DNA of 61,815 nt from Patescibacteria group bacterium (GCA_013816135.1 JACDEV010000003.1:1-61815); one strand, 5' to 3'; shown: positions 11,950 to 61,606, counted from the stretch's first letter. Notes: generated from the sequence alone by a model not told the origin. Program-made: numbers and translations.

Positions 11950-12024
11950 GCCGTTGTAGTTCAGTGGTAGAATACTGTCTTGGTAAGACAGTGGTCGTGG
12001 GTCCGATTCCCACCAACGGCTCCA
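11950..12024 (+). tRNA. tRNA-Thr (GGU), CCA encoded
   Basis: Acceptor GCCGTTG/CAACGGC, anticodon loop TTGGTAA, T arm GTGGG-TCCGATT-CCCAC (C at position 55). Confidence 0.9.
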
Positions 12025-12171
12025 AGAAAAAATATGTTTTTTCTTCTGGGAATCGGACGACGGAGCGGGCACACAGCGAGCTCGCTGGGTCGCGAGTCGG
12101 TGCCCAGACTAAAATGTTTTGACGAAAACATTTTAAGTCGAGGGAGATTTCCATCAACAGCTCAAAGAAAA
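12025..12171 (+). repeat. tRNA-linked GC-rich structured element, copy A
   Basis: In order: A/T hairpin; reverse complement of the tRNA-Thr T-loop/stem; GACGGAGCG; hairpin; CGCGAGTCGG; long hairpin; 22/26-nt copy of the tRNA 3' end plus trailer. Confidence 0.6.
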
Positions 12172-18357: not shown

Positions 18358-18540
18358 CAAAATAGCGAAGCTATTTTCCTGTCCAGAAGCAAAGCGTAGC
18401 TTTGCGCTTGGACTCGAACGACGGAGCGATTCGTGTTTTAACAAAAACACGACGCGAGTCGGCGCCTAGACTTTTTCCGAGCGACGGCAAGGAAAAAAGT
18501 CGGAGGAGAGAGTGTACTCACGATCCAAGTCTGGCAGCCA
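18358..18540 (+). repeat. tRNA-linked GC-rich structured element, copy B (ends in a second tRNA-Gln 3' end with CCA)
   Basis: A/T hairpin; TGTCCAGA; hairpin; CTTGG+ACTCGAA (inverted T-loop); GACGGAGCG; hairpin; CGCGAGTCGG; hairpin with GAGCGACGGC loop; CCAAG TCTGGCA G CCA. Confidence 0.6.
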
Positions 18541-45490: not shown

Positions 45491-45548
45491 ATTTATATTG
45501 TAGCGCAGAAAAAACTTCTCGTCATGATGAGCATAAAGAATACTTTTG

Positions 45549-45625
45549 TTATTTAGAGTACGCACTTTTCTTGCTAGAAAAGATGCTCGAATCCTCGCGC
45601 CGTCGCGCTCTGAGCCTCTAAATAA
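45549..45625. repeat. GC-rich 63-nt core repeat (copy X) enclosed by a 10-bp flanking stem
   Basis: Core 45556-45618 is 62/63 identical to 52892-52954. TTATTTAGAG (45549-58) pairs with CTCTAAATAA (45616-25). Confidence 0.7.
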
Positions 45626-45637
45626 TAAAAATATTCT

Positions 45638-54202: not shown

Positions 54203-54706
54203 ATGAACAACATACCTGAAGTAAAAGATAAAGAATTGCATCGTATTGCCACAACAGTTCTAATTTATAAACCAGACTTTACATATCTCATTACTAGACG
54301 AGCACTTCATAAAAAAATGATGCCAGGTAAGTGGACTATTCCTGGTGGAGGTTTAAATATCGATGATTATATACATCTTCCTCCACATTCTGAAGGTGCA
54401 CCACAATGGTATGGAGCTTTGGAAAACAGTATGAGACGAGAGATAAAAGAAGAAGTAGATTTAGAAATTGGAAAATGTGAAATGCTAACTGACCTGACTT
54501 TTATTCGTCCAGATGGAATACCTGTGATTTGCTTCAGTTACTTTACGCCATTTATTTCAGGTGAAGTTAAGTTTGACCAAGATACTGAAGGAGATACTAT
54601 CGATGCAAAATGGGTGACCTTGGAAGAAGCTTCGAGGTATGATTTGATAGATGGGATTTGGGATGAGATAAAAGATGTGGAAAATATTTTAAAGTCACGG
54701 AAGTAA
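54203..54706 (+). CDS. NUDIX hydrolase
   Basis: GGGLNIDD ... MRREIKEEVDLEI Nudix box. Confidence 0.8.
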   Translation: MNNIPEVKDKELHRIATTVLIYKPDFTYLITRRALHKKMMPGKWTIPGGGLNIDDYIHLPPHSEGAPQWYGALENSMRREIKEEVDLEIGKCEMLTDLTFIRPDGIPVICFSYFTPFISGEVKFDQDTEGDTIDAKWVTLEEASRYDLIDGIWDEIKDVENILKSRK

Positions 54707-54722
54707 TTCTATAATTTTAATT

Positions 54723-54860
54723 GGAGAGTTCGCATAGCGGTCTGGTGTTGAAATGCGATGAGCATTTCAAAGACGGAGCATGGCGATGCGAGTCGGGGTC
54801 GAGGAAATTTTTTCCAAAAAATTATCCGTGACCGAGCTTGGAAAGCGGGTGCTATAATGG
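54723..54860 (+). pseudogene. disrupted copy of tRNA-Ser(GGA) carrying structured element copy C
   Basis: 54723-54747 matches the 5' 25 nt of the intact tRNA (1 mismatch). An 88-nt insert (54748-54835) carries GACGGAGC...GCGAGTCGG. Then comes the anticodon arm CGAGCTTGGAAAGCGGGT. No T arm or 3' acceptor strand. Confidence 0.6.
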
Positions 54861-54869
54861 TTTTTAATT

Positions 54870-54956
54870 GGAGAGTTCGCATAGCGGTCTAGTGCGCTCG
54901 CTTGGAAAGCGGGTAGGGAAGCAATTCCCTCAGGAGTTCGAATCTCCTACTCTCCG
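54870..54956 (+). tRNA. tRNA-Ser (GGA)
   Basis: Acceptor GGAGAGT/ACTCTCC, anticodon loop TTGGAAA, long variable arm, T arm AGGAG-TTCGAAT-CTCCT. TATAAT lies 11 nt upstream. No encoded CCA. Confidence 0.9.
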
Positions 54957-55127
54957 CAAACAAATTGTTTGCAATTTGTTCGTGAGAGTAAGTAAGGTCA
55001 TGTTATGACCTTACGTGGAGATTCGAAAGACGGAGCGGGTACTAGTCGAGCACGACTGGTCGCGAGTCCGGGTAGGGAAAATTTTCGAGCGACGGCCATA
55101 AAATTATTCCTGACCGAATTTCTCCGC
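54957..55127 (+). repeat. tRNA-linked GC-rich structured element, copy D
   Basis: A/T hairpin; GAGAGT; hairpin; GGAG+ATTCGAA (inverted T-loop of tRNA-Ser); GACGGAGCG; hairpin; CGCGAGTCCG; hairpin with CGAGCGACGGCC loop; CGAATTTCTCC GC. Confidence 0.6.
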
Positions 55128-55159
55128 TATAACTTTTAGTTGTGTTAAAATAAGAATAT

Positions 55160-55708
55160 ATGAAAAATTCACAAAAAGGTTTTACAAATATTATTTTGAT
55201 AGTAGTTATTGTCGCAATTGTAGCTGTTGGTGGATATTTTGTTTTATCTAAAAAATCTCATCAAATAAGCAACAATTTGGTTCCAACCACTGCAAATTTA
55301 CAAACATATAAAAATAATAATTATAATTTTGAATTAAAATATCCAAACAACTATTCCTTAATAGAAAACAAAACAGGAATTTTGATATCATCCTCACAAT
55401 CTTGTCAAAAAACTCTAGGTACAGGAGGAGGTCAATGGCCAAAGGACTGTTTTGTATACGAACTATTAATTCAGAAAAATAAAATAGAAGGAGGAAGTGC
55501 TCACACACCTTCAACGAAAGTGGCCGGTTATTCTTCAGAAAAGTTTGAGATAGACGGAGGTATGTATGATAATTTGAATCAAATTTATATTCAATTTGAA
55601 AAAGGTGGCATCTGGTATATAAGTTATGTCTCCTACCATTCAGAAAACAAAATTACGGCAGAAAATTTACTACATGAGATTCTATCTACTTTTATATTTA
55701 GTGAATAA
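55160..55708 (+). CDS. hypothetical secreted/anchored protein
   Basis: N-terminal TM helix. No motif recognised. Confidence 0.45.
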   Translation: MKNSQKGFTNIILIVVIVAIVAVGGYFVLSKKSHQISNNLVPTTANLQTYKNNNYNFELKYPNNYSLIENKTGILISSSQSCQKTLGTGGGQWPKDCFVYELLIQKNKIEGGSAHTPSTKVAGYSSEKFEIDGGMYDNLNQIYIQFEKGGIWYISYVSYHSENKITAENLLHEILSTFIFSE

Positions 55709-59812: not shown

Positions 59813-59902
59813 GGAGGGTTGGCAGAGTGGTCTAATGCGCCGCACTCGAAACGCGGTTGGGGGTTTACCTCCTCACAGGTTCAAATCCTGTACCCTCCGC
59901 CA
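59813..59902 (+). tRNA. tRNA-Ser (CGA), CCA encoded
   Basis: Acceptor GGAGGGT/ACCCTCC, anticodon loop CTCGAAA, long variable arm, T arm ACAGG-TTCAAAT-CCTGT. Confidence 0.9.
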
Positions 59903-60037: not shown

Positions 60038-61606
60038 ATGAATAATCACACCAGAAAATTTTTCATCTATACTCGCAAATCTACCGATACAGAAGATCGG
60101 CAAGTTAGAAGCATTTCGGATCAACTGGCCGAGTTAAAAGAGTTAGTGGTTAAAGAACAAATTGAGGTTGTTGATATTTTCGTGGAAAAGCAAACTGCTA
60201 AAGCTCCGGGTCGGCCAGTATTCAATGAAATGCTTCTCCGTATCGAAGCAAATGAGGCGAGTGGGATTTTAGCGTGGCATCCTGACCGCCTAGCTCGTAA
60301 TTCTGTTGATGGTGGAAAGATAATATATTTGCTTGATACGGGAAAAATTGCCGAGCTAAAATTCCCAACTTTCTGGTGTGATACTACGCCACAAGGTAAG
60401 TTCATGCTTTCCATTGCTTTCTCTCAATCCAAATACTATATCGATAACTTATCGGAGAATATCAAGCGTGGACACAGAAACAAAGTGAAAGACGGTATAT
60501 GGCCTCAAATGTCGCCTCTGGGCTATGTAAATGTCAAAGGTGCTGGAATAGTACCCGATGAAAATATCGCTCCGTTAATCAAGAAAACATTTGAGGCCTA
60601 CGCAACTGGAAATTTCACTTTGCGACAACTGCACGATAAGTTTAACGCTCTTGGATTGAGTAGAAAGAATGGAAAGGTGCTTTCCGTTTCAAACTATCAA
60701 CAAATTTTGAAAAATCCGATATTCACGGGGTTAATGAGATATAGTGGTGAAATATACGAAGGAAAGCACAAACCGATTATCACAAAGAAACTTTTTGATT
60801 CTGTTCAAGAGGTGATGAGTCGAAAATCTAAACCGCATAGCAAAGGACTGAAACCATTTTTGTATAGAGGATTTTTCCGTTGTGGAGAATGTGGATGTTT
60901 TATCACTACCGAAACACAGAAAGGTCATAACTATTTGCGATGTACTAAACGGAAAAATCCTTGTTTGCAAAAATATGTCCGTGAAGAAATCATCACTTCT
61001 CAAATTGCAGAAAGTATCAAAAAAGTTTCTTTGCCACTCGATTGGACAAATTGGATGATTGCCGAAAATGAAAAAGATCGGCAATCAGAAACCCAATCGA
61101 GTGAGATTTTTTCTCAAAAAACAAAAGATGAAATTTCTCTTTTAGATTCAAAAGTTGAAAAGTTGATGAACTTATATTTAGAAAATGTTTTGTCTTTGGA
61201 AGAATATCGTGATTCTAAAAATAAGTTAGTGAATCAAAAACAACTTTTAAAAGAGAAATTATCGGCTTTTGAGAAAAAATCTCATAATCGGTTCGAACTT
61301 ACCGATAAATTCCTAAAAGCCAATGTATCCAATATGGAATTGGCTAACGAGAAAACAAATGAAGAAATTCTTCATTTGTTTAAAAAAGTCGGTTCGAACT
61401 TTCAAATCTTGAATCGAACCGTCTTTTTTGAGCCACGCTCTGCGTGGCGAACCCTTTCAGATTCAGGATTTTTTGGGGGGAATTCAGAACAGACGGCACT
61501 TCGTGCCGACCATATTTTTGCTTCCGAACCCGATTTCGTTTTTTGGCGGTATGTTCTGGACAAAGTTCGAACCTTTTTTGAAATGAATCCTGACGAAGAA
61601 ATCTGA
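60038..61606 (+). CDS. large serine recombinase (integrase/invertase type)
   Basis: Resolvase catalytic domain (IYTRKSTDTEDRQ, HPDRLARN), recombinase domain, zinc ribbon (CGECGC...LRCTKRKNPC), coiled coil. Adjacent to a tRNA gene. Confidence 0.9.
   Translation: MNNHTRKFFIYTRKSTDTEDRQVRSISDQLAELKELVVKEQIEVVDIFVEKQTAKAPGRPVFNEMLLRIEANEASGILAWHPDRLARNSVDGGKIIYLLDTGKIAELKFPTFWCDTTPQGKFMLSIAFSQSKYYIDNLSENIKRGHRNKVKDGIWPQMSPLGYVNVKGAGIVPDENIAPLIKKTFEAYATGNFTLRQLHDKFNALGLSRKNGKVLSVSNYQQILKNPIFTGLMRYSGEIYEGKHKPIITKKLFDSVQEVMSRKSKPHSKGLKPFLYRGFFRCGECGCFITTETQKGHNYLRCTKRKNPCLQKYVREEIITSQIAESIKKVSLPLDWTNWMIAENEKDRQSETQSSEIFSQKTKDEISLLDSKVEKLMNLYLENVLSLEEYRDSKNKLVNQKQLLKEKLSAFEKKSHNRFELTDKFLKANVSNMELANEKTNEEILHLFKKVGSNFQILNRTVFFEPRSAWRTLSDSGFFGGNSEQTALRADHIFASEPDFVFWRYVLDKVRTFFEMNPDEEI
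61430..61483. repeat. right arm of the 54-bp perfect inverted repeat (inside the recombinase 3' coding region)
   Basis: GAGCCACGCTCTGCGTGGCGAACCCTTTCAGATTCAGGATTTTTTGGGGGGAAT. Confidence 0.95.

Follow-up and report, generated by a model that had tools for sequence, protein, structure and literature searches.

The sequence that follows the tRNA-Ser(GGA) gene at positions 54958-55127 (copy D) is best read as an integrated member of a previously undescribed kind of ORF-less, structured insertion element of Patescibacteria, which resides in the 3' parts of tRNA genes, tmRNA genes and, occasionally, protein genes. The elements share one family structure and carry a guide complementary to their target; the host gene end is duplicated in a way that restores the gene, the same site is filled in one genome and empty in another, and one core has been re-targeted to different genes. 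The most probable explanation, to which we give a probability of about 55%, is an ORF-less, guide-bearing, site-specific and gene-restoring insertion element that works through RNA, with the RNA strand, its pairing to the target and the role of a catalyst predicted from sequence. Such an element suggests a new, base-pairing-guided way for DNA to move.

Copy D sits inside the tRNA-Ser gene, at 55|56 of the T-loop, and consists of the following parts:

54870-54957, + strand: tRNA-Ser(GGA), the host and target gene (ARAGORN; Rfam tRNA, 50.6 bits)
within 54870-54957, + strand: target segment X (with R), i.e. the T-loop, the 3' strand of the T-stem and the 3' strand of the acceptor of tRNA-Ser
54958-54979, + strand: L, an A/T-rich, terminator-like hairpin (AACAAATTG-tttg-CAATTTGTT) that abuts the 3' end of tRNA-Ser (sequence)
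54983-54989, + strand: R', GAGAGTA, the reverse complement of TACTCTC in the acceptor 3' strand of tRNA-Ser (direct reading)
54992-55014, + strand: a variable inserted 10-bp hairpin (GTAAGGTCAT-gtt-ATGACCTTAC) between the acceptor complement and the T-stem complement (sequence)
55017-55028, + strand: the guide X', GGAGATTCGAA(A), the exact antisense of tRNA-Ser positions 54-64 (sequence)
55029-55037, + strand: GACGGAGCG, the start of the conserved core (sequence)
between GACGGAGCG and CGCGAGTCCG, + strand: the AGTCG/CGACT hairpin (sequence)
55061-55070, + strand: CGCGAGTCCG (sequence)
55029-55068, + strand: P2, GAC-G-GA-GCG ... CGC-GA-GUC, capped by a covarying hairpin with an AGCA loop (alignment A2, RNAalifold, pair counts)
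55069-55071, + strand: J2/3, CGG in copy D and GGG in most copies (alignment A2, columns 67-69)
55072-55114, + strand: P3, a long hairpin, GUAGGGAAAAUUUU ... AAAAUU(A)UUCCUGAC (alignment, RNAalifold, pair counts)
55115-55127, + strand: X'', CGAATTTCTCCGC, a decayed direct copy of tRNA-Ser from C56 towards the 3' end

Every part that the first-pass annotation had listed for this copy is found at the position given there; its extent needs a small correction, as the copy is better bounded as 54958-55127 than with a start at 54957. The conserved core comprises 55029-55114, while the two 5' hairpins and the antisense pieces make up a target-specific arm. The guide sequence GGAGATTCGAA at 55017-55027 is the exact reverse complement of TTCGAATCTCC, the T-loop and T-stem 3' strand of tRNA-Ser, and its last two paired bases, AA, pair with U54-U55, both of which lie outside the duplicated block. 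R' is arranged in the same way in other copies that have the B/D type of arm, and analogous 'AG-hairpin-G' inserts with different stems are present in copy B of the window and at loci L251, L257, L258, L262, L303, L305 and L331. P3 of copy D has the conserved G·U, the invariant bulged A and the tip GAGCGACGGC (55087-55096). Copy D has no promoter of its own and follows the terminator-like hairpin, where a terminator-like site (54956-54972) and a T run are found; a hairpin L occupies the equivalent position in most of the family members that were read side by side. The idea that L is the terminator of the host was rejected for one sub-family, in which AAAAATAAnGAG...GACTATATTTTT recurs at many different tRNAs.

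The window, i.e. the whole analysed stretch of 61,815 nucleotides, holds exactly four copies: one after tRNA-Thr (A), one after tRNA-Gln (B) and two around tRNA-Ser(GGA) (C and D). The three copies besides D are:

12025-12166, + strand: copy A, after tRNA-Thr(GGT) (covariance model, 87.6 bits)
18359-18535, + strand: copy B, after tRNA-Gln(CTG) (covariance model, 84.6 bits)
54722-54855, + strand: copy C, a variant with a short core (covariance model, 51.7 bits at 54750-54854)

Exact GACGGAGC occurs in the 61.8 kb only at 12059, 18420, 54772 and 55029, and a pattern with 22 bases of information has four sites in the window and none in 100 shuffles. A covariance model built from 62 copies, including A, B and D of the window, gives copy D 115.9 bits (E about 2e-46), and the best match in the window outside the family reaches 12.8 bits. 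All four copies fold as a three-way junction, with z-scores of -3.7 to -5.0. The guide of copy A, TGGGAATCGGAC, matches the unusual T-loop TCCGATT of tRNA-Thr and its X'' is decayed; copy B has the guide CTTGGACTCGAAC and an X'' that is still perfect over 15 nucleotides (TCCAAGTCTGGCAGC). Copy C has a hairpin of its own (TTGAAATGC/GCATTTCAA) and a core without the P2 cap, and is embedded in a partial duplicate of the 5' part of tRNA-Ser, with positions 1-25 upstream and the anticodon loop and 3' stem downstream.

For searches beyond the window, a first pattern (GACGGAGCN{5,35}GCGAGTC) was discarded as too weak, since it gave chance matches in GC-rich DNA of genomes and viral contigs. It was replaced by a refined, degenerate 22-base pattern with an A/T run, which matched all five copies known at the time and none of 242 unrelated chance loci. 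Among the matches listed, the refined pattern places the family core at no less than 120 metagenome loci, and it has no match in 2.9 million viral contigs. As this pattern detects close relatives only, both the breadth of the family and its copy number are uncertain. ARAGORN found the end of a tRNA on the same strand within 350 nucleotides upstream of 85 of the 127 cores in the oriented loci among the matches listed; the core usually lies 23-90 nucleotides downstream of the tRNA and in the same orientation, and the host tRNAs span 16 amino-acid identities among these matches. Cores that lack an upstream tRNA are mostly at contig ends, after a tmRNA gene (L325) or in the 3' end of a protein gene; in the latter case, the core is in the same gene at orthologous sites of two genomes (L266 and L346). 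Solo copies without a tRNA also occur. Each element is 130-190 nucleotides long and contains no ORF.

The family does not correspond to any structured RNA in Rfam 15: the whole window at the gathering score returned only tRNAs, the region 54650-55200 at E-values up to 10 returned only tRNAs and chance matches outside the core, and 20 related loci returned only tRNA and tmRNA. There was thus no match to hammerhead, twister, twister-sister, pistol, hatchet, hairpin or HDV-like ribozymes, T-boxes, group I or II introns or HEARO. Neither ARAGORN nor Rfam identifies a cloverleaf within 54958-55127; the upstream tRNA-Ser is the only tRNA called. Helix P1 (see below) mimics the pairing of the acceptor and T-stem, with the junction in the position of the T-loop. 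A full-text literature search found no description of the element family.

The family members have a common plan. The host gene is complete to about position 74 and is followed by hairpin L, X', AAA and P2, then by GGG, P3, X''-R'' and finally the flank as it was originally, including its terminator. X''-R'' repeats the host sequence in direct orientation between the junction and the gene end, and starts at C56 at T-loop sites. X' and X'' pair as a helix, P1, and the conserved part is therefore a three-way junction. This was examined in an alignment of 62 distinct copies of the long type (alignment A2). Of the 31 pairs predicted by RNAalifold, 26 show compensatory changes. In a 36-pair structure, 29 pairs vary on both sides and 91.1% of the cells are paired, against 71.0% in column shuffles, none of which (0/500) reaches the observed value; when the partners are slid, only 35-47% of the cells are paired. 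There are 64 G·U pairs against 24 A·C mismatches, columns 73/111 form a conserved G·U in 53 of the 62 copies and the bulged A106 is invariant. Covariation, the excess of G·U and the conserved G·U and bulged A together indicate that the structure is formed by a single strand of sense polarity and not by a double-stranded palindrome.

The strands of the junction are AAA, (G/C)GG and 0 nucleotides in alignment A2. The base of P2 (GAC-G-GA-GC / GC-GA-GUC) is invariant and includes a tandem G·A; it may be a k-turn-like motif. K-turns consist of a C-helix, a 3-nt bulge, tandem sheared G·A pairs and an NC-helix, and are bound by proteins of the L7Ae family; the base of P2 has the tandem G·A and both helices, with a bulge of one nucleotide instead of three.

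In contrast to the core, the guide is different at each host. The first-pass annotation had claimed that the antisense T-arm piece is specific to the neighbouring tRNA, and this is borne out: among the matches listed, 10-21 nucleotides of the upstream tRNA recur as an exact reverse complement within the 22 nucleotides that precede the core at 47 of 85 loci, while a 10-nt antisense match is reached in 2% of trials with non-cognate tRNAs. X' also follows unusual T-loops, for example U54-C55 in the tRNA-Thr of the window and U54-G55 in L277 and in the tRNA-Met of L243. The clearest case is an orthologous tRNA-Thr(GGT) site (synteny: tRNA-Thr, small ORF, prfB, ftsE) that is occupied in three genomes, each with a T-loop matched by its own X':

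this window: tRNA-Thr(GGT) T-loop TCCGATT
L243: tRNA-Thr(GGT) T-loop TTCGATT
L277: tRNA-Thr(GGT) T-loop TGCAAGT

As a rule about T-arms the claim was too narrow: by sequence, X' matches whatever host sequence lies at the junction, be it the 3' end of a tRNA with its trailer, a tmRNA or the 3' end of a protein gene. A second class lies 46 nucleotides after Lys, Arg, Ala and Glu tRNAs, and its guide corresponds to the last five nucleotides of the tRNA and three of the trailer (for example X' = CTTGTCCG versus CGGAC|AAG, with X'' = GACAAG); pairing at these sites extends over 6-8 bp only. The copies in protein genes track their host too (CACGAAGACTAT versus CACAAAAACTAT). The two bases of the guide that adjoin the core are paired with host bases -2/-1 at 49 of 50 loci; these host bases vary (TT, TG and TC in T-loops; CG, GG, GT and TC at 3' ends). 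X'' does not supply the two positions, and X' therefore matches the host gene itself, over -2 to +n, with the junction two pairs into the duplex of guide and host.

X' has 1.2 mismatches on average and X'' 2.1. Copies A and D combine an intact X' and core with a decayed X'', and for these a role in pairing to the tRNA fits at least as well as a dead insertion. That X' is kept while X'' decays is poorly supported as a general rule and was dropped, as several X'' mismatches are small inserted hairpins. The complement of CCA is part of X' only where the gene encodes CCA (L331, L360), which gives no evidence for copying from a mature tRNA; the idea of a primer-binding site was rejected for this reason.

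Several observations point to insertion. The duplicated block always begins at the junction and reaches the end of the host gene, and its length is 19 nucleotides at T-loop sites, 6-8 nucleotides at tRNA ends and at least 80 nucleotides in the protein gene of L266 and L346. Because the duplication reaches the gene end, the host gene is intact upstream of the element and a second, often decaying copy is left downstream. The 3' piece of copy D, previously seen as a remnant of the tRNA T-loop and 3' stem, is indeed a decayed tRNA copy; its origin is better explained as a target duplication, i.e. the gene end displaced by the insertion. The tRNA-Gln(CTG) site that copy B fills in the window is empty at the orthologous gene of L243, which has the conserved leader as well. 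Tandem arrays are present at L267, L307, L319, L356 and L270, and L243 has a partial second unit; one element is nested within another at L344 and L268. At L241, P2 of a copy is interrupted by a second, unrelated small structured element.

The core of copy D shares 94% identity with the core after tRNA-Glu(CTC) (L257); for cores behind tRNA-Gly and tRNA-Trp the figures are 88% and 85%, and these values take in stems that vary freely in the family. The X'/X'' flanks in the same comparisons are only 32-68% identical; against the copy at tRNA-Glu, the flanks reach 32-58%. Near-identical cores between unlike flanks indicate a single core lineage at different tRNAs, with the address and the flanks exchanged. 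This contradicts the proposal that the elements were not copied from one master sequence: the core of about 90 nucleotides is a conserved family, with 94% and 88% identity between the core of D and those at tRNA-Glu and tRNA-Gly, and only the flanks are host-specific.

A linked enzyme was looked for in 794 ORFs from 120 loci. In clusters built from these ORFs, among the matches listed, the largest recurrent cluster is present at 7 of the 120 loci, no protein family recurs beside the elements and a full-length parent element is absent. The only recombinase cluster that was recognised (by eye) is a large serine recombinase, encoded 1-5 kb away at 6 of the 120 loci; the window has a large serine recombinase gene at 60038-61606. 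It was rejected as the linked enzyme, given this distance and a 2-bp crossover that does not fit. No tyrosine integrase was found among 44 ORFs of the window and loci put through Pfam, and by ORF clustering and Pfam, the elements neither contain an integrase, transposase or reverse transcriptase nor have one as a consistent neighbour. Pfam on 40 ORFs of the window returned housekeeping genes only, and the flanking genes are of this kind (CTP synthase, sortase, RF-2, FtsEX, GroEL, RNase J). The nearest homologues of its PyrG are labelled Zambryskibacteria, Paceibacterota, Parcubacteria or Patescibacteria. A comparison at strain level by the exact PyrG sequence retrieved no record besides that of the window itself.

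In the mechanism that we propose, the elements would be selfish, non-autonomous and site-specific. The active form would be a single strand of sense polarity, most likely RNA read through from the promoter of the host gene, and X' in this strand would select the target by base pairing. The P2/P3 junction would be the platform for an unlinked catalyst that joins the element at -1|+1, or would be the catalyst itself. A unit-length, probably circular intermediate (L-X'-core-X-R) would recombine within X, and this would yield the observed order of parts, the restored gene, the displaced copy and the tandem arrays. Since the element carries a replacement 3' end, the interrupted gene stays intact. 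A bolder version is possible, if doubtful: a natural, minimal programmable insertion system with a core of about 90 nucleotides, a rewritable guide of 8-21 nucleotides that is re-templated at each target and a spare 3' end, whose core would be either a new class of ribozyme or the guide RNA of an unrecognised host recombinase.

An RNA intermediate would need a reverse transcriptase, and none was found nearby; this need disappears if the active form of the same mobile element is folded single-stranded DNA. P1 (X'·X) would then restore the target site in double-stranded form, a trans-acting tyrosine or HUH recombinase would recognise P2/P3, including the bulged A and the G·T, and replication would resolve the exchange of one strand. 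The order X ... X'-structured region-X'' is indeed that of integron cassettes, in which the core site precedes R'', the folded region and R' in turn, the structure is strand-specific with an invariant extrahelical base, tandem arrays are present and uptake of DNA is thought to occur in Patescibacteria. Even so, single-stranded DNA seems rather unlikely. X' pairs with target positions -2/-1, which are absent from the element's own junction, and this argues for pairing of nucleic acid with the target and not only for intramolecular folding; the tandem G·A beside a G-C stem and the conserved tetraloops are probably typical RNA motifs; no integrase or HUH gene is linked at the 120 loci; and the R boxes of attC have a fixed consensus, whereas the repeat is here rewritten for each target. 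A self-cleaving and self-ligating ribozyme has been considered as well. The core would be a small ribozyme of a new class that cleaves each of the two copies of X on the 5' side of the segment paired with X'; the unit-length RNA would circularise and re-insert into tRNAs as RNA, and reverse transcription and recombination would fix it in DNA, in a retrozyme-like manner. The anatomy is compatible with this: the P3|P1 boundary of the three-way junction, where the two helices abut with 0 nucleotides in between, coincides exactly with the junction; a conserved G·U and invariant unpaired nucleotides are close by; X is terminally redundant, as excision of a unit-length RNA from a transcript demands; and the substrate helices are of arbitrary sequence. 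Such a ribozyme nevertheless has little chance of being correct, since it is drawn purely from this anatomy, matches no Rfam ribozyme even at E-values up to 10, lacks the hammerhead core CUGANGA/GAAA by direct reading and depends on a reverse transcriptase, of which none is linked.

The two remaining explanations do without a mobile element of this kind. The sequence could be a cis-acting RNA in the 3' trailer of the tRNA that benefits the host: X' would pair with the T-arm and acceptor 3' strand and so exert control over folding, processing of the 3' end, termination or stability, X'' would set the tRNA free by acting as a decoy, and the RNA would have spread because it is useful. The elements are always co-oriented with the tRNA and immediately downstream of it, copies A and D keep an X' of perfect complementarity to the tRNA next to a decaying X'', changes in the T-loop are followed by X' at the orthologous site in three genomes, and the density is high for small genomes, with 3 of the 7 tRNAs of the window carrying a copy. 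The copies at the tRNA-Thr site in three divergent genomes could reflect vertical retention and selection for a host function instead of mobility. We consider a trailer RNA improbable all the same, as the same core is also found at the 3' end of a protein gene, where 80 nucleotides are duplicated, sites at tRNA 3' ends and trailers pair over 6-8 bp only, tandem, nested and tRNA-less solo copies exist, and orthologous tRNAs, like most tRNAs in the window, are free of the element. Finally, the elements could be inert scars, either fused attL/attR arms left by the deletion of integrase-carrying elements or local inverted duplications of a tRNA 3' end. A duplicated gene 3' end at T-loops and tmRNA is a hallmark of integrase-mediated islands, and there are the serine recombinase genes within 1-5 kb at 6 of 120 loci and in the window. 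Scars are hardly credible, given at least 120 copies with a common core of 90 nucleotides in which there are compensatory changes and G·U pairs specific to one strand. In most copies, X'' follows directly after the core; the clustered ORFs hold no full-length parent and viral contigs no match, serine recombinases duplicate 2 bp only, and local duplication, which had been named as a way to explain the similarity, fails to account for identical cores at different tRNAs in different genomes.

Among the known systems, the insertion sites recall those of the tRNA and tmRNA islands (prophages, ICEs, genomic islands, tycheposons), which have tyrosine integrases. Both enter tRNA and tmRNA genes at the T-loop or the 3' end, and protein genes at the 3' end; both bring a replacement 3' end, leave the displaced copy at the far side and form tandem arrays. 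Unlike the islands, the elements described here are 130-190 nucleotides long with no integrase and no ORF, their conserved part is a strand-specific three-way junction and not a set of arm-type protein sites, and they carry an internal antisense copy of the target. By the criteria for islands and prophages, the direct repeat of the tRNA 3' end is present, but attL and attR are only 130-190 nucleotides apart and enclose no ORF. Integron attC sites and the attP of CTX phage share the order of target core, payload, inverted repeat, structured region with an extrahelical base, and direct repeat, and, if single-stranded DNA is assumed, also recognition of a folded single strand by an enzyme in trans. 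An attC site is defined by R'' (RYYYAAC) and R' (GTTRRRY) boxes with an IntI integrase and attI nearby. While these boxes are a fixed 7-nt consensus, the repeat of the elements has 6-21 nucleotides, is target-specific and also pairs with two bases outside the duplication; in copy D it is host tRNA sequence (GGAGATTCGAA / CGAAT...) and not the R-box consensus. There is no IntI/attI platform nearby, and the long duplication restores the host gene.

An internal complement of the target that defines the site, so that specificity changes when this sequence changes, is shared with group II introns (EBS/IBS), the bridge or seek RNAs of IS110/IS1111, the tetranucleotides of IS200/IS605 and the omega RNAs of TnpB/IscB. 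The elements differ from all of these in the lack of Rfam similarity (including HEARO) and of a cognate protein gene, in a single continuous guide of 8-21 nucleotides across the junction and in the long, gene-restoring duplication. Primer-binding sites of retroviruses and LTR elements are likewise antisense to the 3' portion of a specific tRNA, over 11-21 nucleotides from the acceptor 3' strand, the 3' strand of the T-stem and the T-loop; here, the complement of CCA is included only if it is gene-encoded, the match covers the whole T-loop, some members target sequences other than tRNA and there is no reverse transcriptase. MITEs, REPINs and Rickettsia palindromic elements are also short, ORF-less, multi-copy and structured, are found within RNA and protein genes and are mobilised in trans, but have fixed terminal inverted repeats and short, fixed target duplications, with no target-complementary guide, no restoration of the 3' end and no conserved three-way junction. 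The hammerhead is a three-way junction with CUGANGA, GAAA and a NUH cleavage triplet; only the tandem GA flanking P2 resembles its G8A9/G12A13, and its other features are not found. TIGR-Tas and theta ribozymes differ in anatomy. Diversity-generating retroelements (DGR) have TR/VR differences confined to the adenines of the template and a reverse transcriptase nearby; such a reading of the protein-gene copies was rejected, as the repeats of L266 differ by G/A, CC/TG and A/G, which is not adenine-specific.

For annotation, the elements enlarge the intergenic regions beside roughly 40% of tRNAs, as estimated from a small sample of loci, and the partial tRNA duplicates that they produce can mislead tRNA finders and island predictors. 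Should the elements be cis-regulatory instead, they would represent the first known case of a trailer RNA that pairs with the T-arm of the tRNA to which it belongs. If the preferred reading as a guide-bearing insertion element is true, the small size of its core makes it interesting in practice for programmable insertion, and the family would add to the systems of nucleic-acid-guided insertion, next to group II introns, CRISPR-associated transposons, IS110 bridge RNAs and omega-RNA nucleases. Patescibacteria would then harbour a hitherto unseen class of mobile element of about 150 nucleotides that has no gene, finds its address by base pairing and brings a built-in patch for the 3' end that it interrupts.

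Two of the four copies of the element family in the window, copies C and D, lie around tRNA-Ser(GGA), the start of which is duplicated:

window 54688-54869: tandem duplication of the promoter and 5' part of tRNA-Ser(GGA)

The duplicated part covers the promoter plus roughly 46 nt at the 5' end of the gene, with CTATAAT...TTTAATT-GGAGAGTTCGCATAGCGGTCT... present twice. Copy C, a short-core element, splits the upstream partial tRNA-Ser(GGA) copy after nucleotide 25; its closing helix is a hairpin of its own (TTGAAATGC/GCATTTCAA) with no tRNA-derived pair, and its flank, GGTG|C, is similar to the site at the metagenome locus L344 where the same module is nested in another element.

The short core consists of the hairpin CTGAAACGC/GCGTTTCAG together with P2/P3, and is also found as one domain of a bigger conserved non-coding region that has no adjoining tRNA:

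L253 1700-2200, L264 4420-4900, L284, L295, L296, L337, L322, L332: regions with the short core
L264 3427-4323, L253 2363-3163: conserved ORF beside the region

The ORF, of 270-300 amino acids, adjoins the region in both loci examined (L264 and L253). Searches of the non-coding region against Rfam and of the ORF against Pfam gave no match.

Copy A follows a tRNA with an unusual T-loop:

window 11950-12024: tRNA-Thr(GGT), T-loop TCCGATT

This T-loop has a C at position 55, where U or pseudouridine is, to our knowledge, almost universal, and the guide of copy A (its segment antisense to the host gene) contains the compensating G that matches C55.

Two further parts of the window were considered:

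window 45535-45636, minus strand: intergenic stretch GGCTCAGAGCGCGACGGCGCGAGGATTCGAGCATCTTTTCTAGCAAGAAAAGTG, 12.8 bits with the family model
window 59813-59902: tRNA-Ser(CGA), adjoining the recombinase gene
window 60038-61606, plus strand: large serine recombinase gene (Resolvase, Recombinase and Zn-ribbon domains)

The intergenic stretch may be a degenerate relative, as it has the GAGCGCGACGGCGCGAG and UAGCAA-loop motifs in common with the family. The recombinase gene starts 135 nt past tRNA-Ser(CGA) and probably marks where another, separate integrated element begins or ends; among the 120 metagenome loci listed, 6 have a comparable gene at a distance of 1-5 kb from the core.

A second small structured insert, type 2, is not related to the family elements (type 1) and had no match in Rfam:

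L241 9700-9560, L242 6130-5890, L241 8000-7880, all minus strand: type 2 inserts
L241 9830-9700, L242 6250-6120, both minus strand: tRNA-Gln with partial 5' copy and complementary flanks

Its layout is ...CCTTGAGC-hairpin-AAAGGTGTAC(A/T)GC-hairpin, where the last hairpin has a GUAA loop. Type 2 is found after tRNA-Gln, in L242 as a tandem pair of units with a perfect 29-nt repeat of the tRNA 3' end behind it, and also within P2 of a type 1 element. At both loci a 20-nt partial copy of the tRNA-Gln 5' end stands before the gene, and leader and trailer are mutually complementary (AATTTTGAGCAGAGC / GCTCTGCTCAAAATT), a pairing that lengthens the acceptor stem by ~14 bp.

When L327 was compared with L290 and L320, its sequence 5' of the guide proved to be the reverse complement of the L290 flank downstream of X'', the direct host copy after the core, which suggests that recombination between the inverted repeats X' (the guide) and X'' caused an inversion.

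Variant cores begin GCCGGAG or GAAGGAGGC, composite forms include four- and five-way versions with added hairpins, and in some forms X'' is interrupted by small inserted hairpins:

L274, L302, L355, L344, L268, L246, L271: variant and composite forms

The search pattern overlooks these variant and composite forms, so the family must have more members than the 120 loci that the pattern brought up.
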